Assembly (NCBI GenBank): GCA_963741945.1
Contig: CAVUKA010000006.1
Coordinates: 160,001-224,000 of the forward strand
Direction: 5' to 3'
DNA from: an uncultured Gemmatimonadales bacterium
Lineage (GTDB): Bacteria > Gemmatimonadota > Gemmatimonadetes > Longimicrobiales > RSA9
DNA: 64,000 nt
Position 1 is the first letter of the stretch. Each line of letters opens with the position of its first letter. Below are positions 5,853 to 36,296 of the stretch, one piece after another. Made by a program: the position numbers and the translations under genes. The notes beneath the pieces were generated by a model. It did no database searches. It worked only from the letters and a program-made list of their open reading frames with translations, and was not told where the DNA came from.

Positions 5853-5894
5853 CGCCCCGAGCGGTCGCTGCGGGAATACACGAAGCACCCGACT

Positions 5895-5920: not shown

Positions 5921-5968
5921 GGGATGGGCTGAACGATACGAGCGTGAACCGGTCGCGTGAGGTGACGT

Positions 5969-7648: not shown

Positions 7649-7652
7649 TGCC

Positions 7653-9744: not shown

Positions 9745-9748
9745 GACC

Positions 9749-10567
9749 ATGGCCATCATCGCCATCTGTCGCGGCACGAAGAGCGGTGGGGCGGCCATGG
9801 CCGAGTGCCTGGCCAATGGCCTCGACTATCCGGTCCTGGGCCGCGAGGTCGTGCAGGATGCGGCCGCGGAGCTGGGCGTCCCGGCCCAGCTCCTCGAACA
9901 GCGCATGGATGCGCGGCCCACGCTGTGGAGCCGGTTCTCCAATCTGAGGCGCACCTACATGGTGGCCATTCAGGCCGCCATGGCGGAGTACGCCGTGGAG
10001 GGCGACCTGGTCTACCACGGCCTCGCCGGCGGGCTCCTGCTGCGCGGCCTTCCCGCCACGCTCTGGCTCCGGCTCATCGCGCCGATGCGTTATCGGAAGC
10101 GGGTGGTCATGGGCGAGTCGGACATGGATGACGCGCTGGCGGAATCCTACATCCGCGAGATGGACGAGACCCGTGCTCGCTGGGTGAAGGTGATGTACGG
10201 CGAGGACATTGGAGATCCGGACCTTTTCGACATGGTGGTCAGCCTGGACAAGCTGACCATCGACGGTGCCTGCTCGGTGGTGGTGAAGACGGTCGAACAG
10301 CCCGAGTACACGATCACGGACGAGATCCGGTCCCGGCTGCTGAACTTCCGGACGGCGTGCCGGGTGAAGCTGGCGCTGGTCCGGGACAGCGAGCTGCGCA
10401 GCCTCGAACTCGACGCCCGCGTCGAGGACGGTGCTGTGGTGATCACGGGGGAAGCGCCCCTCATGAAGGGTGGACGGACGGGGAACCGCATGGTCGACCT
10501 CGCACGATCGGTACAGGGCGTGGAGGAGGTCCGGCTCAAGGTGGAGTGGTTCGACCCGTATCCGTAG
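9749..10567 (+). CDS. Cytidylate kinase-like protein with C-terminal BON-like domain (paralog 2)
   Basis: ATG 9749, MAIIAICRGTKSGG, LVYHG, RLIAP, FDMVVS. C-terminal 'LDARVEDGAVVITG..ARSVQGVEEV' is BON-like. Confidence 0.78.
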   Translation: MAIIAICRGTKSGGAAMAECLANGLDYPVLGREVVQDAAAELGVPAQLLEQRMDARPTLWSRFSNLRRTYMVAIQAAMAEYAVEGDLVYHGLAGGLLLRGLPATLWLRLIAPMRYRKRVVMGESDMDDALAESYIREMDETRARWVKVMYGEDIGDPDLFDMVVSLDKLTIDGACSVVVKTVEQPEYTITDEIRSRLLNFRTACRVKLALVRDSELRSLELDARVEDGAVVITGEAPLMKGGRTGNRMVDLARSVQGVEEVRLKVEWFDPYP

Positions 10568-10623
10568 GCCGAACGACGATCCGGCACGCCCGCGTCGAGA
10601 GCGGGCGGCCAGGAGTGAACGAT

Positions 10624-11619
10624 ATGCACCAGCGCTTCGTTTGCGCCGCCGGCAGTGTGATTCCACTCACGCTCCTGCTCCTCCTGTGCCTGTGCGCGCC
10701 CGCCGTGGCGCAGCACGCGACGCCGGATGCTGCCGAGATGGCCGGCATGGAGGCGGCCATCAGCGACCACGTCTGGTGGTTCTGGCCCGCCGTTCTCTTC
10801 GGGATGACCTTCGTGATGGGGATCCTGGCGGCGGTGGCGGGCGTGGGTGGCGGCGTCCTGTTCGTGCCCATCGTGAGTGGATTCTGCCCGTTCCACCTGG
10901 ACTTCGTCCGCGGGACGGGGCTGCTGGTGGCCATGTCGGGAGCCCTTGCGGCGGGACCCGGGTTCCTGCGGATGAACCTGGCGAGCCTTCGCCTGGCCAT
11001 GCCCGTGGCGCTCATCGCGTCTGCGTGCGCCATAGCCGGTGCGATGGTGGGGCTGGCGCTCCCCACCAACGTGGTGCAGACGGCGCTCGGCGCGTCGATC
11101 CTGGGGATCGTGGTGATCATGATCCGGGCGAAGAAATCGGCATTCCCCGTGGTCCCCCGGGCGGACCGGCTGTCCACGGCTCTGGGCATTTCCGGTGTGT
11201 ACATGGAGGCGAGCCTGGGCCGCGAAGTGGACTGGAAGATCCACCGGACCCTCCCGGGTTTGATCCTGTTCATCCTCATCGGGTTCATGGCCGGCATGTT
11301 CGGGCTCGGCGCCGGGTGGGCCAACGTCCCCGTGCTGAACCTGCTGCTGGGCGCCCCACTCAAGGTGAGCGTGGCCACGAGCAAGTTCCTCCTCTCCATC
11401 ACGGACACGTCCGCCGCCTGGATCTATCTGAATCAGGGGTGCGTGATCCCGCTGCTCGTGGTCCCGTCGCTCGTGGGAATCATGCTCGGGTCGTTCGTGG
11501 GCGTGCGGGTCCTCAAGGTGGCGAAGCCGGCGTTCGTGCGGTGGATGGTCATCGCGCTCCTGATCTTCTCGGGGGCGAAGGCGATGACGAAGGGGCTCGG
11601 ACTCCCGTTCTTCTTCTGA
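10624..11619 (+). CDS. Sulfite exporter TauE/SafE family permease
   Basis: Two repeats, GILAAVAGVGGGVLFVP and GFMAGMFGLGAGWANVP. About 8-9 TM segments. AGGAG upstream of ATG 10624. Confidence 0.85.
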   Translation: MHQRFVCAAGSVIPLTLLLLLCLCAPAVAQHATPDAAEMAGMEAAISDHVWWFWPAVLFGMTFVMGILAAVAGVGGGVLFVPIVSGFCPFHLDFVRGTGLLVAMSGALAAGPGFLRMNLASLRLAMPVALIASACAIAGAMVGLALPTNVVQTALGASILGIVVIMIRAKKSAFPVVPRADRLSTALGISGVYMEASLGREVDWKIHRTLPGLILFILIGFMAGMFGLGAGWANVPVLNLLLGAPLKVSVATSKFLLSITDTSAAWIYLNQGCVIPLLVVPSLVGIMLGSFVGVRVLKVAKPAFVRWMVIALLIFSGAKAMTKGLGLPFFF

Positions 11620-11644
11620 CCTGGTCGATGGTGGAGGTGTGGAA

Positions 11645-12094
11645 ATGAGCGAACAGGCGAGCGGGGCTCGACCCTCGGAGGAACAGCGGCTCTATGCCAC
11701 CATCCTGGCTGCCGGGATGTACACGGGGCTGGGTCTGCTGCTTCTGACCTTCGCGCTCTACATCTTCGGGGTCGTGGAGCCGGCCGTCCCCATCGACCGC
11801 CTCGAGACGTACTGGACGCTGAGCGTCGACCGGTTCAACGAGGTGATCAACGCCGAGTACCTGCATCGGGAGCACGGGCTCACCGGCTGGTGGTGGCTCT
11901 CCGCGTTGGGGCGGGGCGACTACCTGAACCTGGTGGGAATCGCGGTGCTGTCGGGCGTCACGGTGATCTCCTTCATCGGCATCATCCCGGTCCTCATCCG
12001 GAAGCGGGACTGGGTCTATGCCGCCATCGCCGTGGTCGAGGTACTCATCCTCGTTCTGGCGGCCAGCGGCATCCTGGCCGTGGGCGGGCATTGA
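11645..12094 (+). CDS. DUF1634-like membrane protein (usual TauE partner)
   Basis: Three TM segments, EQRLYA..L..G and 'TGWWWL..L..GDYLN..GIA.L'. Directly after tauE. Confidence 0.65.
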   Translation: MSEQASGARPSEEQRLYATILAAGMYTGLGLLLLTFALYIFGVVEPAVPIDRLETYWTLSVDRFNEVINAEYLHREHGLTGWWWLSALGRGDYLNLVGIAVLSGVTVISFIGIIPVLIRKRDWVYAAIAVVEVLILVLAASGILAVGGH

Positions 12095-12939
12095 TGCGCT
12101 TCCTCCCCGTTGGCCTCGACCTGCGCGACCGGCCGTGCCTGGTGGTTGGCGGTGGTGCCGTAGGAACGCGCAAGGTGCGCACGCTCGCGCGTGTGGGCGC
12201 GCGCGTCACCGTGGTAGCGCCGGCGCTGACCGATGAGCTGGCCGGCGAGGCCCGGGCGGGGCGCATCCGCTGGCTGCGCGAGCCTTTCCGCCCGGAACAC
12301 CTGGAGGGCGCCCGTCTGGCCGTGCTCGCCACCGATGACCCGGCGGTGAACGCCAGCGCGGCCCGCGAGGCTTCGGCGCGTGGGATCCTGACGTGTGACG
12401 CGTCGTCGGCCGAAAGCTCCGACCTGATCTTCGGCGCGCTCCTGGAGCACGACGGCGTGACCATGGGTGCGTTCACCGATGGCCGGGATCCGGCGCGGGC
12501 GAAGCAGGTGCGCGATGAAGTGGCACTCTGGCTGGGCGCGCCGCGCGTGAACGGCGATGCACCGGCGCCCACGGATGCGCTCCTCGTCCTGGCTGCACAC
12601 GGCAGCCGCGATCCCGGGTGGGGGCGCCCGCTGGAAGTGCTCGCCGAATCGCTGTGCCGGCGCATGGGCGACGACCGCGTGCGCCTGGCATACGTCCAGT
12701 TCGCAACCCCTTCGCTGGAGGACGTGGTGGCCGACGCCGCGCGCTCCGGCTACCGGCGCGTCCGCGTGCTCCCACTGTTCATGACGGCGGAAGGCCACGT
12801 GGAGCGCGACATCCGCCCGGCGGTGGAGCGACTCCGCCGGGACCACGCAGAGCTCGAGGTGACCCTGCTCCCCGCCGTGGGACAGCTCCCCTCGTTTGAA
12901 CAGCTTGTTGCTGATATCGCATTGGAGGTAACCCGATGA
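12094..12939 (+). CDS. Precorrin-2 dehydrogenase (SirC/CysG-N) fused to a CbiX/SirB-type chelatase
   Basis: TGATG overlap. N-terminal 'LPVGLDLRDRPCLVVGGGAVGTRK'. C-terminal 'AAHGSRD..AYVQFATPSL..PLFMTAEGHVERDI'. Confidence 0.85.
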   Translation: MRFLPVGLDLRDRPCLVVGGGAVGTRKVRTLARVGARVTVVAPALTDELAGEARAGRIRWLREPFRPEHLEGARLAVLATDDPAVNASAAREASARGILTCDASSAESSDLIFGALLEHDGVTMGAFTDGRDPARAKQVRDEVALWLGAPRVNGDAPAPTDALLVLAAHGSRDPGWGRPLEVLAESLCRRMGDDRVRLAYVQFATPSLEDVVADAARSGYRRVRVLPLFMTAEGHVERDIRPAVERLRRDHAELEVTLLPAVGQLPSFEQLVADIALEVTR

Positions 12940-12976
12940 GCAGTCCTGTGTCCAACCCCCGACGCCGGAGGAACGC

Positions 12977-14533
12977 ATGATCACCCCGGCTCGCCCGAAA
13001 CCCGGAACGGTGTACCTCGTCGGAGCGGGACCGGGGCATCCGGGACTGCTCACGCTGCGGGCCGTGGAATGCCTGAAGAAGGCGGACCTGGTCATGTACG
13101 ACTACCTGGCGAACGCGTCGCTCGTCGAGCACGCGCGCCCGGATGCCGAGCTCATGCGGCTCGGTCACCACAACGGCGGCCCGCGTCTCTCGCCGAGCGA
13201 GATCATCTCGCTGATGGTGGAGGAAGCCCTGAAAGGGCGGTCCGTGGTCCGCCTGAAAGGCGGGGACCCGAGCATCTTCGCTCGTGGCGGCGACGAGGCG
13301 ACCGCGCTCCGCGACGCGGGCGTCCCCTTCGAGATCGTACCCGGCATCACGTCCGGCCTGGCACTGGCCGCGTTCGCCGAGATCCCGCTCACCCATTTCG
13401 AGGACGCGTCCGCAGTGGCGCTCGTCACCGGGCGGGAGCGGAACGCAAAGCTTGAAAACGACGACTGCCACCTGGACTATGCCGGCCTGGCGTCGTTTCC
13501 CGGCACCCTCGTGTTCTACATGGCCGTGAAAGGCACGCAGGCGTGGAGCAGCGCGCTCATGGAGGAGGGCAAGTCACCGGACACGCCCGTGGGCATCGTG
13601 CGCTGGTGCAGCCGGGCGTGGCAGCAGACCGTCCGCTGCACGCTGGGCACGGTGGCAGAGGTCGTGGAGACGCACGGGCTCCGTCCGCCCTGCCTGTTCG
13701 TGGTGGGGAAGGTCGTCGACCGCACGCCTCGCCTGAGCTGGTTCGAGTCGCGGCCCCTGTTCGGATCCACGGTCCTCGTGGCAGGCTCGGCCAGCAGCGC
13801 GGGCCGCCTGCGCGAGCGGCTGGCGGAAACAGGGGCGGAAGTGATCATGCAGCCGGCGATCCGGGTCACGCCGCCGCCTACGTGGGTGCCCGTGGACGAT
13901 ACGCTTGAGCGCATTGACGACTACCAGTGGCTGGTCTTCTCCACGCCGAACGCCGTGGACGCGCTCATGGACCATATCGATGCCCGGGGCGGCGACGCGC
14001 GCTGGCTGGGCCGCGTGCGCATCGTCGCGCTCGGGTCGGGCACGGTGGACCGGCTGCGGGCGCGCCAGATCCGCCCCGACCTGACCCCCGACGGCTACCA
14101 GCCTGCCGTGCTGGCCCGGACGCTGACGGCGGCGGGGCCGACCCGCGTGCTCCTGGCACGCTCCAATGGTGAACGGCCGGTCCTGGCCGCGGAGCTGGAA
14201 GCGGCGGGCGCGAGGGTGGGCGAGATCGTCGTCTACGCGACGGCTGAAGTGGACGAGCCGGACCCGGACGTGGCGCTCTCGCTGGCTGAAGACGAGCTGG
14301 ACTGGGTGGCCGTGACCAGCCCGGCCACGGCCCGATCGCTGGACCGGCTGTACGGGAGCGCACTGCGCCGCGCGCGCATCGCCTCCATCAGTCCCCTCAC
14401 TTCGGAAGCACTGCGTGAGCTGGGGCTGGAACCGGACGTGGAAGCCGCCCCGGCCAGCGTGGCGGGGCTCGTGGACGCCATAGCCGCGGCGGTGCCCCGC
14501 GTGGCCGTCGCCGAGACCGCAGGAGTTCCGTAA
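12977..14533 (+). CDS. cobA-hemD: Uroporphyrinogen-III C-methyltransferase / uroporphyrinogen-III synthase fusion
   Basis: VYLVGAGPGHPGLLTLRA, VVRLKGGDP and IVPGITS, then 'WFESRPLFG' and a HemD-like half (VFSTPNAV, VTSP, ASISPLTS). Confidence 0.92.
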   Translation: MITPARPKPGTVYLVGAGPGHPGLLTLRAVECLKKADLVMYDYLANASLVEHARPDAELMRLGHHNGGPRLSPSEIISLMVEEALKGRSVVRLKGGDPSIFARGGDEATALRDAGVPFEIVPGITSGLALAAFAEIPLTHFEDASAVALVTGRERNAKLENDDCHLDYAGLASFPGTLVFYMAVKGTQAWSSALMEEGKSPDTPVGIVRWCSRAWQQTVRCTLGTVAEVVETHGLRPPCLFVVGKVVDRTPRLSWFESRPLFGSTVLVAGSASSAGRLRERLAETGAEVIMQPAIRVTPPPTWVPVDDTLERIDDYQWLVFSTPNAVDALMDHIDARGGDARWLGRVRIVALGSGTVDRLRARQIRPDLTPDGYQPAVLARTLTAAGPTRVLLARSNGERPVLAAELEAAGARVGEIVVYATAEVDEPDPDVALSLAEDELDWVAVTSPATARSLDRLYGSALRRARIASISPLTSEALRELGLEPDVEAAPASVAGLVDAIAAAVPRVAVAETAGVP

Positions 14534-16140
14534 TGCAGATCGTCTGCGTATCCAGGGGATCGCTCGCAGCGGGCCGTGAGCTGGCCGATACCCTCGCCGC
14601 CAAGCTGGGCTATCCCGTCCTGAGCCGGGAGAAGCTGATCGAGGAAGCGACGCACGAGGGCATCCAGGTCGGGAAGCTCGAGACGGCCATGATGAACCCC
14701 CGGGCGTTCAACGAGCGCCTCGCCCGGGAGCGGGATCACTACCTGGCCTTCTGCACCGCGTACCTGTGCGACCGGCTGGAGGAGGGCCCGCTGGTCTATC
14801 ACGGGCGCACCGGCCACCTCCTGCTGCGCGGGATCAGCCACGTCATGCGCGTTCGCGTGGTGGCCGATGAGGAGTACCGCATCGCCAGCGTGATGCGCGA
14901 GCTCGGCATCGAGCGGGAGAAGGCGCGGGCATACCTCAAGGCCGTGGAAGAGGACCGGCGCAACTGGACGCGGGCGATGTACGGGGTCTCCTCGGAGGAG
15001 GCCGAGCAGTACGACGTGGTGGTGAACATCGAGCGGATGAGCGTCGGCAATGCCGCCGCTTCGCTCGTCGACATGTGCCAGCTCCCGGACTTCCAGGCGA
15101 CACCGGCATCCCGGCGCGCCATGGAGGACCTGCGCCTCTCGGCGCGCGCCCGGCTGATGCTGGCCCGCGACCCGCGCACCAACCGCTTCGGGTTCTCCGT
15201 GGGCGCGCACGACGGCGTGCTCACGGTCACTTACCTGCCCCACGATGCGGAGGTGGCACCGCACATCGAGCCCGTCCTCCAGCCGCTCGCCGGCGTGGAC
15301 GAGATCCGGGCCACCATGGCGGCCACCACCATCCTCTGGGTCCAGGAGTCGTTCGACCCGGCCTCGGACACGTTCCGCGACGTGGTGGAGATCGCGGGGA
15401 AGTGGAACGCGGCGGTGGAGCTCGTACGCTACACGCCGGACAAGCCATCGGAGTCGAGGCTCGACGTCGAGTCCGTGGCCACCGCCGCTCCGGCAGGAAC
15501 GGGCGCCCCCGCACCGGTGAGTGCTGGAGTCGCCGCGGGCGAAGGCGGGACGGCCATGGCCGGAGCCGTGGCCGTCGCTCCGCCGGCCATCACGACGCCT
15601 CCCGGCGGCATCGAGGAGGACGACGACGAGGAGCCCGCGCTGGATGAGGGACTGAAGGCCACGCTCGACGCGCTGGCCCGGCTCGGGCGGGCCGGCGGCG
15701 CCCGTCACGTGCATGGCACGCGAGGCAGTCTGGTCGCCTCGTGCTGCGGCGGCGTTCCGCACTCGATGGTCGTTCTCGGCGACCTGTTCCTGGGGAGCCC
15801 GCATGCGGCGAGGCTGCGGCTCACGCGCGAGCTGCGCGGCTCCATCACGGAACGGGTGAAAGTGCCCGTGGTGACCGCGGACGAGCTGCGCACGCAGTAC
15901 CTGTTCGGCCGCCGTGACCTGTTCCGTCTGCTCGGGTGGGTGGCCCTCGTCCTCCTGCTGTTCATCGTGGTCTTCACCAACCAGGACGCGGTGATCCAGT
16001 TCCTGTCGGGCGGCGAGGAAGAGCGGAGCCGCGTGATGAGGCTGCTGGTGGCCGCCGCGGTGTTCGCGTTCGTGCCGATCGTCGCCTACTCCTACGGGAC
16101 GGTGGCACGGCTGGTCATGAAGCTGATCCGGATGGAGTAG
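14533..16140 (+). CDS. Cytidylate kinase-like + BON-like + USP-like + two C-terminal TM helices (paralog 3)
   Basis: MQIVCVSRGSLAAG, LVYHGRTGH and YDVVVN, then 'VGAHDGVLTV..LAGVDEI', then 'SMVVLGD..GSITERVKVPVV', then two hydrophobic helices. Confidence 0.7.
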   Translation: MQIVCVSRGSLAAGRELADTLAAKLGYPVLSREKLIEEATHEGIQVGKLETAMMNPRAFNERLARERDHYLAFCTAYLCDRLEEGPLVYHGRTGHLLLRGISHVMRVRVVADEEYRIASVMRELGIEREKARAYLKAVEEDRRNWTRAMYGVSSEEAEQYDVVVNIERMSVGNAAASLVDMCQLPDFQATPASRRAMEDLRLSARARLMLARDPRTNRFGFSVGAHDGVLTVTYLPHDAEVAPHIEPVLQPLAGVDEIRATMAATTILWVQESFDPASDTFRDVVEIAGKWNAAVELVRYTPDKPSESRLDVESVATAAPAGTGAPAPVSAGVAAGEGGTAMAGAVAVAPPAITTPPGGIEEDDDEEPALDEGLKATLDALARLGRAGGARHVHGTRGSLVASCCGGVPHSMVVLGDLFLGSPHAARLRLTRELRGSITERVKVPVVTADELRTQYLFGRRDLFRLLGWVALVLLLFIVVFTNQDAVIQFLSGGEEERSRVMRLLVAAAVFAFVPIVAYSYGTVARLVMKLIRME

Positions 16141-16144
16141 CGAA

Positions 16145-17245
16145 ATGGACCCGACTCTTCTGTTCCAGCATTTCATCACGATCGACGCCACCACCGCCGT
16201 GAAGGTGGTCCTGCTGGGGTTCATCGGCGGCATCCTGTCCGGATTCATAGGGAGCGGCGGCGCGTTCTTCATGACGCCCGGGATGATGAACCTGGGCGTT
16301 CCCGGCGTGGTCGCGGTGGGGAGCAACATCACGCACAAGTTCGGCAAGGCCATGGTCGGCTCGCGCAAGCACAGCGAGCTGGGCAACGTGGACAAGCGGC
16401 TGGGCGTGTACCTGATCTTCACTTCCTTCATCGGCATCCGCATCGCGGTCTGGATCAACAGCGCCCTGTTCGGCAGCGGCGGCGACGGCCACGGCGCGGG
16501 CGGCTCGGCGGCGGCGGACCTCTACATCAGCGCGGTCTTCATCTTCATCCTCTCGCTGGTGGCCATCTCCATGCTGCGCGACGTGCTGCGTCCGGCCGGC
16601 CAGGGCGACGACGAGGGCGGCCCATCGCGGCGGATCGCCAACTTCATCGGCACCCTCAACCTGCCCCCCTACGTGTCGTTCAGGGTGGCGGACGTCCGGG
16701 TATCGGTGTGGGTGCTGGCGCTGGTCGGGCTGGCGACGGGATACCTGGCGGGGACCATTGGCGTGGGCGGCTTCATCGGCGTCCCCTGCATGATCTACGT
16801 GTTCGGCGTGCCGACGGCGGTCGCCGCGGGCACCGAGCTGTACCTGGCCATGTTCATGGGCGGATGGGGCGCGCTGAACTACGCGTTCGAAGGGTTCGTG
16901 GACCTCCGCCTCACCATGCTCCTCTACCTGGGCTCCCTGCTGGGCATCTACGTGGGCGTCTACGGGACCAAGGTGGTGAAGGAGCGGCTGATCCGGCTGG
17001 TAACGGGCGTGGTCATCCTGCTGTGCGTGGTCAGCCGCGCCGTTGCGGCGCCGGCGTACCTGCGGCAGCTGGGCTGGATCCAGTTCGACCCGGCCTGGGA
17101 CGCGCATTTCAACATGGCGAGCGAAGTGATGCTGTTTGCGGCCGGTATGTCGGGCTCCGGTCTGATCCTGTACCACGTGGTCCGCTCCTACCGACTGCGG
17201 CTGCGGGTGCAGAAGCGGCTGGTGGAGGCGAGGCAGGCCGGCTGA
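16145..17245 (+). CDS. Second TauE/SafE family permease
   Basis: GFIGGILSGFIGSGGAFFMTP and GLATGYLAGTIGVGGFIGVP repeats, multiple TM segments. Confidence 0.85.
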   Translation: MDPTLLFQHFITIDATTAVKVVLLGFIGGILSGFIGSGGAFFMTPGMMNLGVPGVVAVGSNITHKFGKAMVGSRKHSELGNVDKRLGVYLIFTSFIGIRIAVWINSALFGSGGDGHGAGGSAAADLYISAVFIFILSLVAISMLRDVLRPAGQGDDEGGPSRRIANFIGTLNLPPYVSFRVADVRVSVWVLALVGLATGYLAGTIGVGGFIGVPCMIYVFGVPTAVAAGTELYLAMFMGGWGALNYAFEGFVDLRLTMLLYLGSLLGIYVGVYGTKVVKERLIRLVTGVVILLCVVSRAVAAPAYLRQLGWIQFDPAWDAHFNMASEVMLFAAGMSGSGLILYHVVRSYRLRLRVQKRLVEARQAG

Positions 17246-17315: not shown

Positions 17316-17921
17316 ATGGCGGACATGAAGAAGAAGATCGAGGACTGGATGGTCCGGGTTTCCTTCGCGGAGGCGAACGCGGACGAGGAAGGGTTCCGCG
17401 CGACGGGGGAGACGGTGGACCGGAAGACCAGCCTCGCGCTGGATCGGATCCGCATGGTGCGGGACGAGCGAGCGCCGGGGCGCGGCACGGAGGGCGACAT
17501 GGCGGAGACCGATGAGACGTTCGCGGCGCGAGTCGGCGGCGACCTGAGCGTCATGGTGATCGATGATGAGCCGATCGTGGGGAAGCGGCTGAAGCCCGCG
17601 CTGGAGAAGGCGGGGTTCACCGTGGAGTGCTACGAGCATCCGGCGGCCGCGGTATCCCGGCTTTCGGAGAAGGAGTTCGACATTGTCGTGACCGACCTGC
17701 GCATGGAGGGTATGGACGGGATCGAGATCCTGGAGCACGTGATGTCGCACAGCGAGCACACGCGGGTCATCCTGATCACCGGCTACGCCACGGTGGAAGT
17801 GGCGCGGGAAGCGCTGGTGAAGGGTGCATTCGACTTCATCTCGAAGCCGTTCAAGCCCCGTGACCTGCGGGCGGTCATCAACAAGGCCGCGCTCTCGCTG
17901 GGCTACCAGGGAATCATCTAG
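17316..17921 (+). CDS. Receiver-domain response regulator with N-terminal extension
   Basis: VMVIDDE, VVTDLRM, ILITGYA and FISKPF. No output domain. GGAGG upstream. Alternative start near 17499. Confidence 0.85.
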   Translation: MADMKKKIEDWMVRVSFAEANADEEGFRATGETVDRKTSLALDRIRMVRDERAPGRGTEGDMAETDETFAARVGGDLSVMVIDDEPIVGKRLKPALEKAGFTVECYEHPAAAVSRLSEKEFDIVVTDLRMEGMDGIEILEHVMSHSEHTRVILITGYATVEVAREALVKGAFDFISKPFKPRDLRAVINKAALSLGYQGII

Positions 17922-17930
17922 GAGGCCCCA

Positions 17931-19475
17931 GTGCCCCCGCCATCCACGGGCGCCAGGGGCGCCTCTCCGCTGGACGCGATGGCGGACGAGGCGCAGCGGG
18001 CGTTGAAGGCCAGGCGCAGCCTGTCCATCCGCACGCGGCTCACGCTCGGGCTGCTGCTCTGGCTCGCGCTGAGCCTGGGCGTGACGCTCGTGTCCATCCT
18101 CATCCTGGGCCGCGTCCAGGCGAAGCTCGATTCCGTGGGCGCGATAGAGCGCTACGCCTTCGAGATTCAGCAGGCCAGGCGGTTCGAGAAGAACTACTTC
18201 CTCTATGGGACGAACCTGCCCGACGCCCTGGACGGTGTCCATACGGCAGGCTCCCTTCTGGACCGCGAGCAGGGCAGCATCGCGTCCGTGCTGGGCCAGG
18301 CGGCGCTCGACACCATGCGGCTGCACGTGCGGCGGTACGAGGAGCTGCTGACACGGCTGCCCGCGCTGCGGGCGGATGCGGACGCCCGGCAGCTGACGGA
18401 GATCGAAGCGGAGCTGCGCGTCCACGGCGCCGAGATGGTGCTCATGGCAGAGGAGCTGTCGACGCGAGAGCGCCGGAGCGTGCAGGCGCTGCTGGTTGCG
18501 TCCCAGCGGATCGCGCTCGCCTTCCTGGTGCTGCTCCTGTTCGTGATCGTGCTCTTCGGCGTGTTCGTGGTGCGCCAGATCCTGGCCCCTCTCGATCGGA
18601 TCATGCGAGCGACGCGTCGCATCGCCGAGGGGGACCTGACGCCCATCACGCCGCGGCGGCGCTACCACGACGAGTTCAGCGAGCTGGCCACAGCCATCAA
18701 CTACATGATGAGCGAGCTGGTGCGCCGGCAGCAGTTGCTGGTGCAGACGCACAAGCTGCAGGCGATCGGCACGCTCACCGCCGGCGTCGCCCACGAGCTG
18801 AACAACCCGATCAACAACATCATGCTCACGGCGGACAGTCTCCAGGAGGACTACACCGAACTCTCCGACGCCGAGCGGCTGGACATGGTGGCGGATCTGG
18901 TCCACGAGTCCGAGCGCGCCCGCGGCATCGTGCGCAACCTCCTGGACTTCGCGCGCCAGACGGAGACGGAGCTCACCCCGCTGGACGTGGAGCAGATCGT
19001 GGGCGAGACGCTCCAGCTGGCGAGCAATCAGGTGAAGATCGCGAAAGTGAAAGTCCAGGGTGAGGTGGAGGAGAACGTGCCGCCGATCTTCGGTGACCGG
19101 CAGCAGCTGATCCAGGTCTTCCTCAACCTGGTCCTGAACGCGCTGCACGCCATGCCGGGCGGCGGAACGCTGGTCATCGGCGTGGAGAAGTCGGAGGATC
19201 GGAACTTCGTCGAGGTCTCGTTCGCGGACACCGGAACGGGGATCGCGCCGCAGCACCTGTCGCGGATCTTCGACCCGTTCTTCAGCACGAAGAAACAGGC
19301 GCGGGGGACGGGACTCGGCCTGAGCGTCTCACTGGGGATCATCAAGCAGCACGGCGGCGACATCCGGGTCCGGAGCAGCGAGGGCGAGGGGACGGTATTC
19401 ACGGTCTCGCTGCCCGTGGCGCGCGTCCCTGCCACCATGGCGGAGGCAGAGGCGGAGGTGGCGGCCGGCACGTGA
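17931..19475 (+). CDS. Membrane sensor histidine kinase (helical periplasmic sensor, HAMP, HisKA, HATPase)
   Basis: Two TM segments, 'ARRFEKNYFLY', HAMP, GVAHELNNP, QVFLNLVLNA, DTGTGI, FDPFF and GTGLGLS. Confidence 0.92.
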   Translation: MPPPSTGARGASPLDAMADEAQRALKARRSLSIRTRLTLGLLLWLALSLGVTLVSILILGRVQAKLDSVGAIERYAFEIQQARRFEKNYFLYGTNLPDALDGVHTAGSLLDREQGSIASVLGQAALDTMRLHVRRYEELLTRLPALRADADARQLTEIEAELRVHGAEMVLMAEELSTRERRSVQALLVASQRIALAFLVLLLFVIVLFGVFVVRQILAPLDRIMRATRRIAEGDLTPITPRRRYHDEFSELATAINYMMSELVRRQQLLVQTHKLQAIGTLTAGVAHELNNPINNIMLTADSLQEDYTELSDAERLDMVADLVHESERARGIVRNLLDFARQTETELTPLDVEQIVGETLQLASNQVKIAKVKVQGEVEENVPPIFGDRQQLIQVFLNLVLNALHAMPGGGTLVIGVEKSEDRNFVEVSFADTGTGIAPQHLSRIFDPFFSTKKQARGTGLGLSVSLGIIKQHGGDIRVRSSEGEGTVFTVSLPVARVPATMAEAEAEVAAGT

Positions 19476-19564
19476 GGCCGGGAGGGTCACAGGCGCAACG
19501 CAGGTGCGGAAGGCAAGGGGCAGTGGTCTCCCTCGAGAACGTGAGCTGAGCTACAATGTCGATC

Positions 19565-20233
19565 ATGAGTGAGTCTTCCCTTCCGGTCACGTCGTCCGTG
19601 CCGAACACGGAAGCAGCGGCCTTCATGGGCCGCATCACGGCCGCAGCCACGCACGAGCTCAGGAACGTGTTGGCGATCATCCGGGAGTCGGCCGGACTGG
19701 TGGACGACCTGCTCGCCAGGTCGTCCACACGTGCCCTGGATGCCGACAAGCTGGAGTGGGCGACGGGGCGGATCGCGGCGCAGGTGACGAGGGGCGCGGA
19801 GCTGTGCACGTCGTTGAACCACGTGGCGCATGGCCTGGACCGGCCTGCGGAAGCGGTGGCGCTGAATGTGGCGGTGGCCGACACTACGCTGCTGTGCGGG
19901 CGCTCGGCGCGGCAGCGGCAGCGTCGGCTGGCTATACTCGCCGGTGATGGGAACCCAACGGTCGAGCGGAATGCGCTCCAGCTGTACATGGGGCTGGCCG
20001 CCGTGGTGGAATGGTGTGTGGAGCGGGTGCCGGAAGGTGGGACGTTGGCGATCCGGGGCGAGATGCTGCCGACCGGGCCGGCAGTGGTATTCCGGTCCGA
20101 GCCCGTGTGGCAGACGGAGCTGGCGGAGAACGGGGATCTGCGGATGGCGCTGGATACGGAGCCCCTGCGCTCGCTGGCCGTCAGCATGGAGGTGCCGCCC
20201 CCCGGGTCGGAGCTACTCCTCTGCTTCCATTGA
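19565..20233 (+). CDS. Degenerate histidine kinase: HisKA H-box retained, ATPase boxes absent
   Basis: FMGRITAAATHELRNVLAII with no recognisable N, G1 or G2 boxes. Start could be 19556. Confidence 0.7.
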   Translation: MSESSLPVTSSVPNTEAAAFMGRITAAATHELRNVLAIIRESAGLVDDLLARSSTRALDADKLEWATGRIAAQVTRGAELCTSLNHVAHGLDRPAEAVALNVAVADTTLLCGRSARQRQRRLAILAGDGNPTVERNALQLYMGLAAVVEWCVERVPEGGTLAIRGEMLPTGPAVVFRSEPVWQTELAENGDLRMALDTEPLRSLAVSMEVPPPGSELLLCFH

Positions 20234-20281
20234 TCCCGCGGGTGCGTCCCAACGGAGCCAAGATCGGGTGAGGAAGGAACC

Positions 20282-21202
20282 ATGAGCAAAATGAAGCTCC
20301 TGCTGGTCGACGACGAGGAGGAGTACGTCCGGACCATGGCAGCGCGGCTGTCCATGCGGAACGTCTCCAGCCAGGTTGCCCTTACAGGTGAAGACGCCCT
20401 CGCGGCCGTGGCGGCAGACGCTCCGCACGTGATGGTACTGGATCTGCGCATGCCCGGCATCGACGGCATGGCGGTGCTGGAGCGGGTGAAGCGCGAGCAC
20501 CCACACGTACAGGTCATCATCCTCACGGGACATGGATCGGAAGACGAGAAACGGAAGGCGCTGCAACTGGGCGCGTTCGACTACCTGGAGAAGCCCGCGG
20601 ACACGGGGCAGCTCTTGGGCGTGATCCGGGAGGCGTGGAAGCGAGCGCTCCGACTGCTCAAGGAGTCGGAGGCGGAATTCAGTCGCTCGATGGTGGCCGC
20701 GGCGATGGCGGAAGCGGGCGACGCGGACTCGGCGCTGGAGCACCTGGCCCGGACCCGCGAGACCGGGTCGCCGGCTCCGGTGCTGGAGCCAGAGCCGGCG
20801 CTGAAGGTCCTGTTCGTGGACGACGAGGAGGACTTCGTCCGCACGCTGGCGCAGCGCATGGAGATGCGGGACATGGGCGGCGACGTGGCGCTGAGTGGGC
20901 AGGAGGCGCTCGCGGCGCTGGAGCGGGAGCCGCCGGACGTGATCGTGCTGGACCTGAAGATGCCCGGCCTGGGCGGAATGGAGGTCCTGCGTCGCGTGAA
21001 GAAGCTGGACCCGGCGATCGAGATCATCATCATGACCGGCCACGGCTCCGTGCAGGACGAGGAGGAGGCGAAGCGCCTGGGCGCGTTCGAGTACCTGCGC
21101 AAGCCGGTGGAGATCGAGGTGCTGATGGACGCCGTGCGCCAGGCCGGGCAGCAGCGACGCGCCAGCCCCGGCTCGCGGGGCGGTGAAGCGGTCGGGGACT
21201 GA
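20282..21202 (+). CDS. Tandem double-receiver response regulator
   Basis: Two REC domains (LLLVDDE..VLDLRMPG..ILTGHG..LEKP and VLFVDDE..VLDLKMPG..MTGHG..LRKP). Confidence 0.9.
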   Translation: MSKMKLLLVDDEEEYVRTMAARLSMRNVSSQVALTGEDALAAVAADAPHVMVLDLRMPGIDGMAVLERVKREHPHVQVIILTGHGSEDEKRKALQLGAFDYLEKPADTGQLLGVIREAWKRALRLLKESEAEFSRSMVAAAMAEAGDADSALEHLARTRETGSPAPVLEPEPALKVLFVDDEEDFVRTLAQRMEMRDMGGDVALSGQEALAALEREPPDVIVLDLKMPGLGGMEVLRRVKKLDPAIEIIIMTGHGSVQDEEEAKRLGAFEYLRKPVEIEVLMDAVRQAGQQRRASPGSRGGEAVGD

Positions 21203-21217
21203 CCGGCGCCGATTCCA

Positions 21218-22987
21218 ATGAGCGAGCGGGCAAGGAAGCCGCCGGGCCCGGCAGCGGACGCCGAGGGCCTCATCTCCGGCAATCGGTATCGCCGGATGCT
21301 GCTCACGGCCGTCCTGGCCATATCGGCGGTGGCGCTTCTACCGCTGGGCCTCATGTCCTGGGTCAGCTACCGCCAGTACCGGGAAGCGTTCCGGGCGGAG
21401 CTGACGCGGCCGATGCTGCGCTTCGCCGAAGCGGGGCAGCATTCCATGGAATCGTACCTGGCGGACCGGCTGTCCGCGCTGGCCGGCGTGGGCCGCACGA
21501 GCAGCTACGACCAGCTCACGGCCCCGGCGCGGCTGGACTCGGTGCTGGCGGCGATGAACCAGCGTTTCGGCGGTGTCGTGGACCTGGGCGTGATCCGTGA
21601 CGATGGCACCCAGGTGGCCTACGCCGGCCCCTACGGCCTCACCGGTCGCGACTACAGCCAGCAGAAGTGGTTCCGGGAAGTGGCGACCGCCGGATCGTAC
21701 GTGAGCGACGTCTTCCTCGGCTACCGGAACCTGCCCCACATCGTCGTCGCCATCCAGGGCGACCGGGGCGGCGGCGGGTGGTATGCGCTCCGCGCCACCA
21801 TCGATACGGACGTGCTGCACTGGCTGGTGCGGGACCGGGGCAGCCGTCGCCCGGAGCAGGGCTCGGTGTGCAACCGGTGCCACTCCCTGGGCGTGCCGCC
21901 GTTCAGCGATGCGTTCATCATCAATGGCCAGGGCGTGCTCCAGACGCCGTCCCGCCGGTACGGCGCGGTGCTGGACACCGCGCTGCTGCCGCCGCTGCCG
22001 CCGGCGCCGGATCCACGCTTCGCCTCGTTCACGGACGGGACCGGCGAGCCGGTGGTGGCCGCATACGCCGGCATCGCCCGGTCGCCGTTCACGCTGGTGC
22101 TGCTCAGTCCGCTGGACGCCTTCCACGCCGGCTGGCGCTCGCTCCGCCGCGAGCTGGTGATCATCCCGCTGGTGAGCGGTCTGGTCATTCTGCTGGTGAT
22201 CATCTTCGGTGCGGTCTGGGCGGTGCGCTCGGCACGGGAGACGGACCGGAAGCGGGCTGCGCTGTTCCACGAGATGGAGTACACGAACAAGCTGGCGGCC
22301 ATCGGGCGGCTGGCCGCGGGCGTGGCGCACGAGATCAACAATCCGCTCGCCATCATCTCACAGAAGGCGGGGCTCCTGCACGACCTCCTGACCATGTCGG
22401 AGGAGCCGCCGCCCCGGGAGAAGTCGCTGGATCTCGTGGAGAGCGTGCTTCGCTCGGCCGAGCGCTGCGGCGGGATCACGCACCGGCTGCTGGGCTTCGC
22501 CAAGCACATGGACGTGCAGCACGAGCCCATCAGCCTGGAGGCCCTCCTCCGGGAGGTCCTCAGCTTCCTGGAGAAGGAGGCGGAGCACCGGAACCTGCGG
22601 GTCTCGCTGAACGAGGCGGAGGACACGCCGGCCATCGTAAGCGACCGGGGCCAGCTGCAGCAGGTCTTCCTGAACATCATCAACAACGCGTTCGCGGCCG
22701 TGGCGGACGGAGGGCGGATCGGGATCGACATCCGCCCGGCCGGTGAGGGGCGGGTGGCGGTGAGCGTGTCGGACGACGGGGTCGGGATCCCGGAATCCAA
22801 CCTGGAGCACATTTTCGACCCGTTCTTCACCACGAAGCAGGGGGCCGGGACCGGGCTGGGGCTGTCGATCACCTACGGAATCGTGGAGAAGCTGGGCGGC
22901 GAGATCGGGGTGCGGAGCAAGGTGGGCGAGGGCACGACCTTCACCGTCACGCTCCCCATCGAGCCGCCGGGGGTGAGGAGCCGGTGA
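21218..22987 (+). CDS. Cache-type sensor histidine kinase with a CxxCH motif in the periplasmic domain
   Basis: TM, then 'DLGVI..YAGPY.L.GRDY..WF..YVSDVFLGYR', CNRCH at 21869-21883, second TM, GVAHEINNP, QVFLNIINNA, DDGVGI and GTGLGLS. Confidence 0.92.
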   Translation: MSERARKPPGPAADAEGLISGNRYRRMLLTAVLAISAVALLPLGLMSWVSYRQYREAFRAELTRPMLRFAEAGQHSMESYLADRLSALAGVGRTSSYDQLTAPARLDSVLAAMNQRFGGVVDLGVIRDDGTQVAYAGPYGLTGRDYSQQKWFREVATAGSYVSDVFLGYRNLPHIVVAIQGDRGGGGWYALRATIDTDVLHWLVRDRGSRRPEQGSVCNRCHSLGVPPFSDAFIINGQGVLQTPSRRYGAVLDTALLPPLPPAPDPRFASFTDGTGEPVVAAYAGIARSPFTLVLLSPLDAFHAGWRSLRRELVIIPLVSGLVILLVIIFGAVWAVRSARETDRKRAALFHEMEYTNKLAAIGRLAAGVAHEINNPLAIISQKAGLLHDLLTMSEEPPPREKSLDLVESVLRSAERCGGITHRLLGFAKHMDVQHEPISLEALLREVLSFLEKEAEHRNLRVSLNEAEDTPAIVSDRGQLQQVFLNIINNAFAAVADGGRIGIDIRPAGEGRVAVSVSDDGVGIPESNLEHIFDPFFTTKQGAGTGLGLSITYGIVEKLGGEIGVRSKVGEGTTFTVTLPIEPPGVRSR

Positions 22988-23364
22988 TGGAGCCGATACG
23001 CGTGCTGATCGTGGACGACGAGGAGGAGCTGGTGAGCGCCCTGCGCGAGCGCCTGGAGCTGCGCGGATTCGTCGTCCGCGGGGAGACGAGCGGTGAGGCG
23101 GCGCTGGCCGCGCTGGAGGAGACGCCGTGGGACGTCCTGCTGGCCGACATCCGAATGCCGGGCATCGGCGGGTTCGAGCTGACGCGGTGCGCGAAGGAGC
23201 AGCACCCGTCCACGGCCGTGGTGCTGCTCACGGGCCGGAGCGCGGCCGGGGATGCCGAGCAGGGGCTGGCGCTGGGCGCCCGTGACTGTCTGGTGAAGCC
23301 GGTGGCGATCGAGGAGCTGACCCGGGTCCTCCGGGCGGCCGCTGAACGGGAGAGCGAGACGTGA
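22984..23364 (+). CDS. Stand-alone receiver domain protein
   Basis: VLIVDDE, LLADIRMPG, LLTG and LVKP. Confidence 0.9.
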   Translation: MMEPIRVLIVDDEEELVSALRERLELRGFVVRGETSGEAALAALEETPWDVLLADIRMPGIGGFELTRCAKEQHPSTAVVLLTGRSAAGDAEQGLALGARDCLVKPVAIEELTRVLRAAAERESET

Positions 23365-23792
23365 ACACGACCACTGTGCTGCTGGTGGACGACGAGGAGG
23401 ACTTCGTCGCCGTCCTGGCGGAGCGGCTGCAGAACCGGGGGATGACGGTGGACACGGCGCCGGACGGTATGACGGCGCTGGAGAAGGCCGCCGCCCGGGC
23501 ATACGACGCCGTGCTGCTGGACATGGCCATGCCGGGGCTGGACGGGGTGGAGACACTGAAGCGGTTGCGGGAGATCAACCCGGACGTGCAGGTCATCGTG
23601 CTGACCGGGAAGGCCACGCTGGCGCAGGGCGTGGAGTCCATCAAGGCCGGCGCGCTCGACCTCGTGGAGAAGCCCGCGTCCATCACCACCCTGGTGGAGC
23701 GAATCGACGAGGCGGCGCGGCAGCGTGCCCGCCTGCAGGACGAGCGGATGCAGCGCCGGATCACGGAGATAACGAGGAAGAAGGGGTGGTGA
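23361..23792 (+). CDS. Stand-alone receiver domain protein with short C-terminal helix
   Basis: VLLVDDE, LLDMAMPG, VLTG and VEKP. Ends with EITRKKGW. Confidence 0.9.
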   Translation: MNTTTVLLVDDEEDFVAVLAERLQNRGMTVDTAPDGMTALEKAAARAYDAVLLDMAMPGLDGVETLKRLREINPDVQVIVLTGKATLAQGVESIKAGALDLVEKPASITTLVERIDEAARQRARLQDERMQRRITEITRKKGW

Positions 23793-23795: not shown

Positions 23796-25379
23796 ATGAG
23801 CGATCCGGTGATGGCCTCGACCGTATCGGAGACCGCGGCGCCGGTCGTTGAAGTACCGGTCACCCCCGGGCGGGCCTCACCCGCAGCCCGCGGCGGGGCA
23901 CCCCCTCCCCCCGCCCCGGAGGTCCTCGCGCCGGCCGGCGGCCGCTTCGACTGGAAACGCGTCGGCTTCATCCTTCTGGGCGCTGCGCTCTTCGCCGCCG
24001 TCTACCTGGCCCCGACCCCCGGCCCCGCCATCGACCCGCGGGGCCAGGCGTTCCCGCTCCCGCCCGAGGGGAAGGCGGCGCTGGCGCTGTTCCTCTTCGC
24101 GGCCACCTGGTGGATCGCGGAGGTGGTCCCCATCGGCGTGACCAGCATCGCCATCGGCGTGCTCCAGGCGCTCTTCCTCATCCGGCCGGCGCGCACCGCG
24201 TTCACCGACTTCATGGACCCGTCGGTGTGGTTCATCTTCGGCTCGCTGGCGTTCGGGATGGTGTTCACCAAGACGGGACTCACCCGGCGGCTCGCGTATC
24301 GCATGCTGTCACTCGTGGGTGAGCGCACGAGCATGATCTACCTGGGCTGCTTCGCCATGACGTCGCTGCTCACGCTCATCATGGCCCACACTGCCGTGGC
24401 CGCCACGGTCTTCCCCCTCCTGGTGGCCATCTACGCGCTCTACACCGACGAGACCGCGCCCACCCGGTTCGGGAAGGGGCTGTTCATGGGGATGGCCTTC
24501 GTGGCCGGCGCGGGGAGCATCATGACGCTGCTCGGCGCCGCCCGGGGCGCCGTCGCCATCGGCTTCTACAACGACATCGCCGGCGGCAACATCGGCTTCT
24601 TCCAGCTCAGCTACTACATGGTCCCCGTCGGGCTCACCATGACGCTGCTGCTGTGGGGCTACTTCATGCTGTACTACACCCCCGAGCGAAAGACCATCCC
24701 CGGGCTGCGCGAGCGGGCCCGGGAGCTGTATCGGGACCTCGGCCCGATGACGCGCAACGAGATCCTGGCGCTCGTGCTCGTCCTCGGCGCCATCCTGATC
24801 CTCAGCCTGCGCAACTTCGTTCCCCTCCTCGCCCCCGTGGACAAGAGCGCCATCATCCTCACCGCCACGGTGCTGTTCTTCGCGCTCCGCATCGTGAACG
24901 TCGAGGACCTGGAAGGGACGTCGTGGAACATCGTGCTGCTCTTCGGCGGCGCCATGAGCCTGGGCTTCTGCCTGTGGCAGACGGGCGCGGCGGCGTGGCT
25001 GGCCATCCACTGGCTCAGCCTCTTCACCGAAGCGCACTGGATGATCTTCGTGCTCGGGATCGCGTTCTTCGTCCTCATCATGACGAACTTCATCATGAAC
25101 GTGGCCGCCATCGCCATCACCATGCCCGTGGCCCTGGTCATGGCCCCGTACCTGAACGTGTCGCTGGAGGTGGTGCTGTTCGCGTCGCTGGTCACCGCGG
25201 GCATGCCCTTCCTCCTGCTCATCGGCGCCGCCCCCAACGCCATCGCCTACACCAGCAACCAGTTCACGACCAAGGAGTTCTTCATGGCCGGCGTCCCGGC
25301 CAGCCTGATGCTCATGGCCGTGCTCGCGCTGTTCGTGTGGATCATCTGGCCGGCCATGGGGATGCCGGTGCTGGGGTGA
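23796..25379 (+). CDS. DASS/SLC13 sodium-coupled anion (sulfate/dicarboxylate) symporter
   Basis: WWIAEVVPIGVT, KTGLTRRLA, WNIVLLFGG, TNFIMNVAA and GAAPNAIAY. About 13 TM segments. Confidence 0.88.
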   Translation: MSDPVMASTVSETAAPVVEVPVTPGRASPAARGGAPPPPAPEVLAPAGGRFDWKRVGFILLGAALFAAVYLAPTPGPAIDPRGQAFPLPPEGKAALALFLFAATWWIAEVVPIGVTSIAIGVLQALFLIRPARTAFTDFMDPSVWFIFGSLAFGMVFTKTGLTRRLAYRMLSLVGERTSMIYLGCFAMTSLLTLIMAHTAVAATVFPLLVAIYALYTDETAPTRFGKGLFMGMAFVAGAGSIMTLLGAARGAVAIGFYNDIAGGNIGFFQLSYYMVPVGLTMTLLLWGYFMLYYTPERKTIPGLRERARELYRDLGPMTRNEILALVLVLGAILILSLRNFVPLLAPVDKSAIILTATVLFFALRIVNVEDLEGTSWNIVLLFGGAMSLGFCLWQTGAAAWLAIHWLSLFTEAHWMIFVLGIAFFVLIMTNFIMNVAAIAITMPVALVMAPYLNVSLEVVLFASLVTAGMPFLLLIGAAPNAIAYTSNQFTTKEFFMAGVPASLMLMAVLALFVWIIWPAMGMPVLG

Positions 25380-35395: not shown

Positions 35396-35588
35396 CCATC
35401 CTCCTGAGGTCACGCCCCGCCGCCGGCCGGTGCAGCCGGCGTGTGTGGGCAGGGAAATCAGTCGATGGCGCCGGCCGCAAACTTCCCGCCATGCGCACGC
35501 GAAGCCCCGGCAAGGCGGCAGATTCGCCGCATCGCCGGGGCTTCCCCGGGCCCGGGCGCCGGCTGCTCCGCAGCCGGCGGGGCCCTCC

Positions 35589-36152: not shown

Positions 36153-36223
36153 TTCGCTCCCGGCTCTCCCATAAGGGTGCTCCCGCACCGTCATTTCATG
36201 AATGGAATTCTACCGGGCCATCC

Positions 36224-36262
36224 ATGAAGGCGCGCTGAGACGGGCGTTAAGCGCTCTTCATG
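36224..36262 (-). promoter_or_regulatory. Putative OmpR-family operator (site 1)
   Basis: Plus strand ATGAAG-N5-CTGAGA-N5-GTTAAG-N5-TTCATG. Minus-strand TAGAAT (-10-like) at 36207-36212. Confidence 0.55.
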
Positions 36263-36296
36263 ATGGGGATCGTGAGGGTCGGGCGCCGCTCGGGCT

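Follow-up and report, generated by a model that had tools for sequence, protein, structure and literature searches.

Among the extracellular sensors of bacteria, Cache domains form the largest class, and they were long thought to act without cofactors; a periplasmic CxxCH motif is the signal for attachment of heme c. Here we describe a sensor histidine kinase that appears to combine the two. Its gene lies in a 64,000-nucleotide stretch of DNA from an uncultured Gemmatimonadales bacterium (assembly GCA_963741945.1, contig CAVUKA010000006.1, positions 160,001 to 224,000), hereafter the window, and encodes a predicted periplasmic double-Cache domain with the motif CNRCH in a short Arg-rich insert. 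The motif is real, is invariant in one clade of Gemmatimonadota kinases and is accompanied by His and aromatic residues at positions that differ in close relatives without the insert. From this comparative evidence we judge it highly probable that the sensor carries a covalent heme and likely, with somewhat more reserve, that the kinase is a heme c-based sensor of independent origin. Through this insert, what was an ordinary ligand sensor has probably become a heme-based one, along a different path from that of the described heme-Cache family.

A CxxCH insert in the periplasmic domain of a kinase

The kinase gene and its parts, in window coordinates, are the following.

21218–22987, + strand: sensor histidine kinase gene, 589 amino acids (aa), with a first transmembrane helix (TM1), a periplasmic double-Cache domain containing the CxxCH insert, a second transmembrane helix (TM2), HisKA and HATPase_c; homologs have 552–611 aa.
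21296–21364, + strand: predicted TM1, aa ~27–49, with Kyte–Doolittle 19-residue windows above 1.6, preceded by an Arg/Lys-rich N terminus and lying within the long N-terminal helix of the AlphaFold2 (AF2) model.
21365–22150, + strand: periplasmic double-Cache (dCache-like) sensor domain, aa ~50–311, predicted from a sub-cutoff Pfam dCache_1 match, AF2, Foldseek and a PDB profile search.
21839–21889, + strand: clade-specific Arg-rich insert of ~17 residues, aa ~208–224, GSRRPEQGSVCNRCHSL, an alignment gap in insert-less relatives.
21869–21883, + strand: CNRCH, aa 218–222, with predicted thioether residues C218 and C221 and predicted proximal axial ligand H222, all three present in 108 of 108 motif-bearing homologs.
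22151–22219, + strand: predicted TM2, aa ~312–334, with hydropathy up to 3.05, followed by RSARETDRKR and part of a continuous helix (299–339) in the model.
22304–22504, + strand: HisKA dimerization and phospho-acceptor domain, aa 363–429 (Pfam 37.4 bits, cutoff 26.9).
22643–22963, + strand: HATPase_c catalytic domain, aa 476–582 (Pfam 100.2 bits, cutoff 26.4; E 1.2e-28).

Both the HisKA and the HATPase_c match exceed their Pfam cutoffs, which identifies a HisKA-type sensor histidine kinase, and H371 in AHEINNPL is likely to be its phospho-acceptor. Only about 35 residues separate TM2 from this H-box histidine, with no HAMP or PAS domain between them. The two transmembrane helices, with Arg/Lys-rich outer flanks, place residues ~50–311 in the periplasm in the predicted topology, so that CNRCH lies between the helices, on the extracytoplasmic side and inside a Cache-type fold. 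The protein has three cysteines (218, 221 and 417), and those of CNRCH are therefore the sole periplasmic ones, as an earlier reading of this DNA made from the sequence alone (the sequence-only reading) had stated.

That reading took an insert in the periplasmic Cache domain to lie between ‘LRATID’ and ‘SDAFIIN’; the in-frame translation of window positions 21836–21900 is RGSRRPEQGSVCNRCHSLGVP. The insert and its setting in a Cache-type domain both hold, as seen from the gap in insert-less relatives and the double-Cache fold, but only part of the stretch is inserted: every homolog has the helix DTDVLHWLVRD, and the missing segment in insert-less forms confines the true insert to residues ~208–224, which follow the inter-module helix and precede the first strand of the proximal (membrane-proximal) Cache module.

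From the composition of the window proteome (Cys 1.17%, His 2.37%), 0.00085 CxxCH motifs are expected per 262 residues, and the motif arose in 30 of 200,000 shuffles of the periplasmic part. A chance origin of CNRCH is excluded. Across 50 open reading frames (ORFs) of the window, the only CxxCH proteins apart from the kinase are five with matches to cytochrome c families, namely DsrJ (three motifs), three one-motif Cytochrome_CBB3-type proteins and one nine-motif protein. The earlier statement that the host makes c-type cytochromes is borne out by these five, and they suggest that the host has the capacity for heme c maturation. By eye, none of the 15 CxxCH contexts in these cytochromes is an obvious donor of the insert, for which no search with the insert alone was run.

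The insert arose once within Gemmatimonadota

A search with the sensor region scored 350 relatives, of which we examined the best 120, the window protein included. CxxCH is present at the aligned site in 108 of these 120, with variable x residues (CRRCH, CSRCH, CHRCH, CGRCH, CLGCH and others). The remaining 12 (P0109–P0120, 51–53% identical) have a gap of ~17 residues there, and all the shorter, more distant relatives that were aligned have this clean 17-residue gap too. Motif-bearing members are otherwise 52–88% identical. Absence of the motif from close orthologs would have told against the sequence-only reading, but all 108 members of the clade keep it, down to about 52% identity. Conservation extends through the insert and its edge: over the 108 rows, R207 is found in 103, R210 in 104, P212 in 102, C218 in 108, R220 in 101, C221 in 108, H222 in 108 and L224 in 102.

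Beyond this clade the motif is rare. An exhaustive sensor-domain search of representatives clustered at 50% identity gave 580 relatives, and among the best 150 of these only two (P0080 and P0105) have the motif in the sensor; a single one of the other 148, more distant representatives has any CxxCH, in its cytoplasmic kinase part. For a tree of the sensor domain only, computed after deletion of the insert columns, we took 36 of the 108 heme-motif rows (every third), all 12 of the close rows that lack the insert, and 30 full-length representatives. In it the sampled heme-motif rows group in a single clade (Shimodaira–Hasegawa-like approximate likelihood-ratio test support 99), sister to the close insert-less group, and one change accounts for the insert trait, which none of 500 label shuffles equalled. 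All outgroups in the tree are insert-less, which makes gain, rather than loss, the parsimonious reading; on this tree, the insert arose once, inside Gemmatimonadota.

The distribution over genomes agrees. Out of 592 confirmed matches in species-representative genomes we retained 78 loci (from the 80 best matches, on assembled contigs); 16 of the 78 carry the motif, all of them Gemmatimonadota according to record titles, and one locus (L033) ends before the motif site. The nearest insert-less loci are likewise Gemmatimonadota. No genome supplied both forms among the 78 loci, which suggests that, within these best matches on assembled contigs, heme-motif and insert-less kinases are alternatives and not paralogs.

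Residues gained together with the insert

Five positions outside the insert differ between heme-motif rows and the close insert-less rows.

Position 200: Phe in 105 of 108 heme-motif rows; Ile in 12 of 12 insert-less close rows.
Position 201: His in 104 of 108 heme-motif rows; Asn in 12 of 12 insert-less close rows.
Position 202: Trp in 24 and Phe in 17 of 41 heme-motif rows; Arg in 6 of 6 insert-less close rows.
Position 229: Phe in 98 of 108 heme-motif rows; Ser in 12 of 12 insert-less close rows.
Position 303: His in 105 of 108 heme-motif rows; Gln in 10 of 12 insert-less close rows.

Two of these positions encode candidate axial ligands.

21818–21820, + strand: His201 codon, in the helix that precedes the insert; a candidate for the distal ligand or for a residue of the pocket.
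22124–22126, + strand: His303 codon, a candidate distal ligand on helix 299–339, which runs into TM2.

In 40 distant rows, position 201 is never His and position 303 is mostly Met, Leu or Gln. The four rows that lack H201 retain H303, the three that lack H303 retain H201, and no row lacks both. A porphyrin pocket built anew would be expected to require such gains of histidines and aromatic side chains. Of the two candidates for the distal position, H303 is a possibility that we hold at somewhat below even chance, and H201 a slightly more doubtful one.

A double-Cache fold outside the known heme-Cache family

An AF2 model of residues 25–340, built from 87 sequences (mean predicted local distance difference test (pLDDT) score 87.1, predicted template modelling score 0.77), runs from the long N-terminal helix through a first α/β module to helix 198–209, which carries H201, and loop 210–230; strands 231–235, 267–272, 278–285 and 292–298 follow, and then helix 299–339, which bears H303 and extends into TM2. 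Searched with Foldseek, the PDB gives dCache sensors as best matches: DctB (E 2e-10), MkcA, HK1S-Z16, PctA/B, Tlp3, KinD and Mlp24 (to 1e-7), with a probability of 1.00 for DctB, PctA, Tlp3, KinD and Mlp24. No heme c sensor is among these best matches. A sensor profile searched against PDB sequences had one credible match, 3lif (E 2.3e-4), beside a single other row (E 0.7), and a search with the single sequence did not rise above noise (acetyl-CoA carboxylase, E 0.07; 3lif, E 0.33). As modelled, the sensor is a double Cache, with a long N-terminal helix and two tandem PAS-like modules between the transmembrane helices. The Pfam profile dCache_1 (PF02743) scores 32.6 bits on the whole protein (residues 66–204) and 36.1 bits on the sensor alone, short of its cutoff of 45, and PF02743 is present in the precomputed annotation of many homologs and absent from that of many others; we therefore file the sensor as a double-Cache fold of the Cache superfamily and not as a strict PF02743 member.

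The polar and aromatic residues Q132, Y135, Y146, W151, Y161, S163, R170, H174, R192, T194 and D196 of the distal module are invariant with and without the insert, and the ancestral ligand site therefore seems to have been retained. The comparison sensors DctB, PctA/B, Tlp3, Mlp24, KinD and HK1S-Z16 share the fold and the topology (TM1, long helix, two PAS-like modules, TM2), but bind small molecules without a cofactor and have no CxxCH insert; 3lif aligns straight over the insertion point.

Covalent heme has been described in another kind of Cache domain. According to a 2026 preprint, the sCache_heme family (PF11845, DUF3365/Tll0287), which includes GSU0582, GSU0935 and Tll0287, has a short helix (α4) with CxxCH inserted between β3 and β4 of a single Cache module; heme incorporation and NO (nitric oxide) binding were shown experimentally, and its authors claim both the first Cache domain with a covalent cofactor and the first recruitment of a cofactor-binding fragment into a sensor domain (10.64898/2026.02.01.703092). 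GSU0582 and GSU0935 are also presented as periplasmic heme c sensor precedents in a further source (PMC8396549), and the available part of another names only the same three heme c structures (PMC8694187). An NO-binding Cache_heme–HAMP receptor has been described in a related preprint (10.64898/2026.05.25.727664), and the P. azotoformans CHH receptor is counted in the sCache_heme/Cache_heme family.

The window kinase resembles sCache_heme in that an extracytoplasmic Cache sensor has gained a short insert with a near-invariant CxxCH and is joined to a kinase, one of several signalling outputs in that family. It differs in architecture and position, since sCache_heme has a single Cache with the insert between β3 and β4 whereas the window kinase has a double Cache with the insert before the first strand of the proximal module; and sCache_heme is spread over many phyla, whereas the window clade is confined to one. 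PF11845 gives no match on the whole protein (E ≤ 0.01) or on the sensor domain or its proximal half (E ≤ 10), and 3B42, 3B47 and 5B82 are absent from the PDB fold and sequence matches of the sensor. We considered membership of sCache_heme (PF11845) and rejected it: there is no profile match, there are two modules, and the insert lies elsewhere, between helix 198–209 and strand 231–235. For these reasons we liken the sensor to Cache-heme sensors in how it would work and do not place it in their family. The insert-less sister clade shares the same scaffold at about 50% identity, which argues for a local and independent gain.

Other heme sensors offer partial likenesses. DcrA of Desulfovibrio vulgaris Hildenborough is described as a heme c chemoreceptor proposed to sense redox potential and oxygen (PMC8396549); it is a transmembrane receptor of a sulfur-cycling bacterium with a periplasmic c-type heme, such as is predicted for the window protein, but it is a chemoreceptor whereas the window protein is a kinase. 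FixL and DosS/DosT are heme-based kinase switches, but with non-covalent heme b in cytoplasmic PAS or GAF domains, whereas the site in the window kinase is periplasmic and its heme is predicted to be covalent. H2S is reported to bind at the ferric heme of DosS (PMC9062744). Full-text literature searches returned no paper on a heme c double-Cache sensor.

A conserved unit with receivers and an anion symporter

The genes from 19 to 25379 are all on the + strand. They begin with dsrK (partial), dsrJ, dsrO, dsrP, dsrA, dsrB, a dsrL-like gene and dsrN; continue with three cytidylate-kinase-like genes, two TauE/TSUP genes, a CysG–HemD fusion, a receiver protein and a HAMP kinase; and end with orf225, a double-receiver (REC-REC) gene, the heme-motif kinase, two single-receiver (REC) genes and a DASS symporter. 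The features that flank the kinase are these.

19556–20233, + strand: orf225, a sensor-less kinase-like protein with a weak HisKA match (E 0.067) and an HELRN box, matching no family at stricter thresholds.
20282–21202, + strand: REC-REC double-receiver protein, 306 aa, without an output domain (Pfam Response_reg twice, E 8.7e-54).
22984–23364, + strand: single-receiver protein, 126 aa, whose start overlaps the kinase stop by 4 nucleotides (nt).
23361–23792, + strand: single-receiver protein, 143 aa, overlapping the gene of the 126-aa receiver by 4 nt.
23796–25379, + strand: DASS-family Na+-coupled anion symporter, the last gene of the unit (Pfam Na_sulph_symp E 1.9e-47; NCBIfam TIGR00785 214 bits, cutoff 198.6).

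The kinase, both single receivers and the DASS gene overlap or lie at most 3 nt apart. Wherever the flank reaches far enough, orf225, the double receiver, the two single receivers and DASS are constant neighbours of the kinase: REC-REC copies are 58–69% identical in the heme-motif loci that reach it, and DASS is found at 70–76% identity in 12 of the 16 heme-motif loci, the other four ending at most 2.3 kb past the sensor region. By record titles, the set orf225/REC-REC/kinase/REC/REC/DASS recurs in Gemmatimonadota, Myxococcota, Thermodesulfobacteriota, Planctomycetota, Ignavibacteria and others, sometimes joined by a TauE–orf151 pair. In most loci across phyla orf225 adjoins the kinase, at 23–50% identity, and it may be a sensor-less kinase or a phosphotransfer partner; it also gives 25–29% tblastn matches inside the kinase gene of some loci. 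The unit comprises five receiver domains in four proteins, of 126, 143, 201 and 306 aa (17316–23792, + strand), with no output domain.

The link to dsr is looser. TauE1 is present in 7 of the 16 heme-motif loci. Where a heme-motif locus has at least 5 kb upstream, TauE1, CK2 and orf151 (at least 50% identity) are found in 6 of 11, and three of these also reach dsrL and dsrN; insert-less Gemmatimonadota loci with at least 5 kb upstream have the dsr-adjacent cluster in 0 of 6. A one-sided Fisher test of 6/11 vs 0/6 gives about 0.04, a value uncorrected for relatedness, and we therefore regard the dsr link as suggestive only.

Some features of the other loci are worth recording. In two insert-less Gemmatimonadota loci a response regulator of the sigma-54 activator type is encoded upstream on the opposite strand (L016:334–1674 and L020:6571–7974), possibly the transcriptional output that the window is without. 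TauE1 (57–72%) and DASS (56–76% in most loci) are far more conserved across phyla than the adjoining sensor (35–40%), as measured in L049, L058, L059, L063, L069, L074 and L076 against window 10357–12094 and 23796–25379, and DASS is only about 24–25% identical in L029, L039 and L070; either the transporters are strongly constrained or they have been transferred between lineages. A literature search for a histidine kinase–receiver–DASS module in sulfate reducers gave nothing specific: the text of PMC5840216 makes no mention of two-component systems, response regulators, sensors or regulators, and that of PMC10591310 none of Gemmatimonadota, histidine kinases, two-component systems or DASS.

A model for the sensor and its alternatives

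We propose that heme c was covalently added to a pre-existing double-Cache ligand sensor. The cytochrome c maturation (Ccm) system would attach heme to C218 and C221, with H222 as the proximal ligand, and the gained aromatic residues would form the heme pocket. With H303 or H201 as the sixth ligand, the resting state would be six-coordinate. A change in iron redox state, or a small ligand displacing the distal His, would then move helix 299–339 and hence TM2, and this shift would alter autophosphorylation, from which phosphate would pass to the receiver-only proteins of the operon. From the Arg-rich insert, the DASS and TauE anion transporters and the dsr genes together, we favour as the signal the redox state of the periplasm, or else a sulfur species that is reduced or anionic (sulfide, sulfite). 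That the sensor responds to redox state or a sulfur compound and not to NO or O2 has about an even chance in our view, and NO and O2 are live alternatives.

In its fullest form the proposal is more tentative, and we hold it at less than even probability: a Cache sensor with covalent heme would have arisen for a second time, independently, and for the first time on a double Cache, with the distal His on the TM2 helix and the ancestral ligand pocket kept. The outcome would be a two-input kinase (small molecule plus periplasmic redox or sulfide/sulfite) through which the transport of sulfur oxyanions (DASS, TauE) is tied to the state of dissimilatory sulfur metabolism in those Gemmatimonadota that carry dsr.

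Several observations weigh against this proposal or parts of it. Heme attachment is something that we infer from sequence alone, the insert has pLDDT below 50 in the heme-free AF2 model, and no ccm or ccs cytochrome c maturation genes were found in the window. H201 and H303 each have exceptions, in 4 and 3 of 108 rows. The Arg-rich character may serve the heme propionates and not an anionic ligand. Linkage to dsr is partial, at 6 of 11 informative heme-motif loci; two heme-motif loci (L003 and L010) have ABC-F, OmpA and H+-pyrophosphatase genes upstream, unrelated to the dsr cluster; and the operon encodes no transcription factor or DNA-binding output, so that kinase control of dsr remains circumstantial. 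The sequence-only reading had proposed a heme-based redox or ligand (sulfide, sulfite, NO, O2) sensor controlling the dsr-linked module. Its first half is well backed by comparative evidence, in the conserved insert and the clade-specific His and aromatic residues, which makes a heme sensor probable. Its second half is circumstantial, given that the outputs are receiver-only proteins, that dsr-adjacent genes lie upstream in only 6 of 11 loci and that L003 and L010 have unrelated upstream genes.

A different account accepts the heme and makes the kinase a gas sensor for NO or O2, like the signalling branch of sCache_heme, with no specific tie to sulfur. The sole biochemically characterized signalling Cache-heme protein binds NO with slow off-rates (10.64898/2026.02.01.703092; 10.64898/2026.05.25.727664), DcrA is described as a sensor of redox potential and oxygen (PMC8396549), and 5 of 11 informative loci have no dsr linkage. 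However, the kinase has no homology to sCache_heme beyond the Cache fold, so the ligand preference of that family is not transferable; the genes conserved beside it encode anion transporters (DASS in 12 of 16 loci, TauE1 in 7 of 16); and two conserved candidate distal histidines suggest a six-coordinate site, which would be less typical of a high-affinity gas sensor. We consider a gas sensor of this kind unlikely.

The protein might instead bind no heme at all. CxxC is also a classic thiol–disulfide and metal motif, and here it could form a periplasmic redox switch or, with nearby His, a site for a metal (Zn, Cu or Fe); model confidence is low in the insert, and the extra histidines (201, 303 and, in 15 of 108 rows, 211) could be metal ligands. 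A disulfide switch, however, needs no His directly after the second Cys, and H222 is invariant in all 108 members; aromatic residues typical of porphyrin pockets were gained simultaneously; CxxCH elsewhere in the window occurs only in proteins that match cytochrome c families; and an exported CxxCH peptide suffices as a substrate of the Ccm system. A heme-free switch or metal site therefore seems to us distinctly improbable. That CNRCH is a chance or neutral feature of a variable, functionless loop has less still to commend it: an inter-module loop does tolerate insertions and AF2 confidence is low there, but with 0.00085 motifs expected and 30 hits in 200,000 shuffles, a CxxCH invariant in 108 of 108 clade members otherwise 52–88% identical, strong conservation of the whole insert and five other positions changed along with it, the conservation data already contradict this explanation and leave it almost no probability.

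Other features of the window

The dsr cluster occupies window 19–9077 (+ strand), with the partial dsrK at the window edge, three CxxCH motifs in dsrJ and a dsrL-like gene for an NAD(P)-binding Fe–S flavoprotein; dsrC and dsrEFH were not recognized among the scanned ORFs. Between dsrB and the dsrL-like gene lies an 82-aa Lys-rich ORF (5604–5852, + strand). In reductive-type operons this is the place of dsrD; the ORF gave no match to the DsrD family, and Pfam returned only weak winged-helix noise. In 9091–17245 (+ strand), two genes for TauE/TSUP transporters, an ORF of 151 aa without a clear family and the CysG–HemD fusion are interspersed among three cytidylate-kinase-like paralogs (PF13189); parts of this gene set accompany the kinase in other Gemmatimonadota loci.

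Further along, the nine-CxxCH protein is followed by a Rieske protein and cytochrome b (53964–57229, + strand), and the three one-motif Cytochrome_CBB3-type proteins lie beside a TatC gene (34766–37741, − strand). A molybdopterin oxidoreductase (42271–45882, + strand) appears as two adjoining ORFs, of 297 aa (Fe4S4) and 894 aa (catalytic and dinucleotide-binding); a genuine split of the gene, a frameshift or recoding of a codon could each account for this. An Rfam scan of the whole window gave 0 matches.

Significance

The kinase would be the second, independent case of a heme c Cache sensor, with a different Cache architecture and a different insertion point, which suggests that periplasmic heme sensors can be built repeatedly by the gain of such a CxxCH segment. 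The heme-free sister clade, at about 50% identity, still exists and appears to replace the heme-motif kinase in other Gemmatimonadota genomes; the two form a natural before-and-after pair in which this evolutionary step is directly testable. For the little-studied Gemmatimonadota that carry dsr, the kinase might provide a first handle on redox or sulfur sensing.

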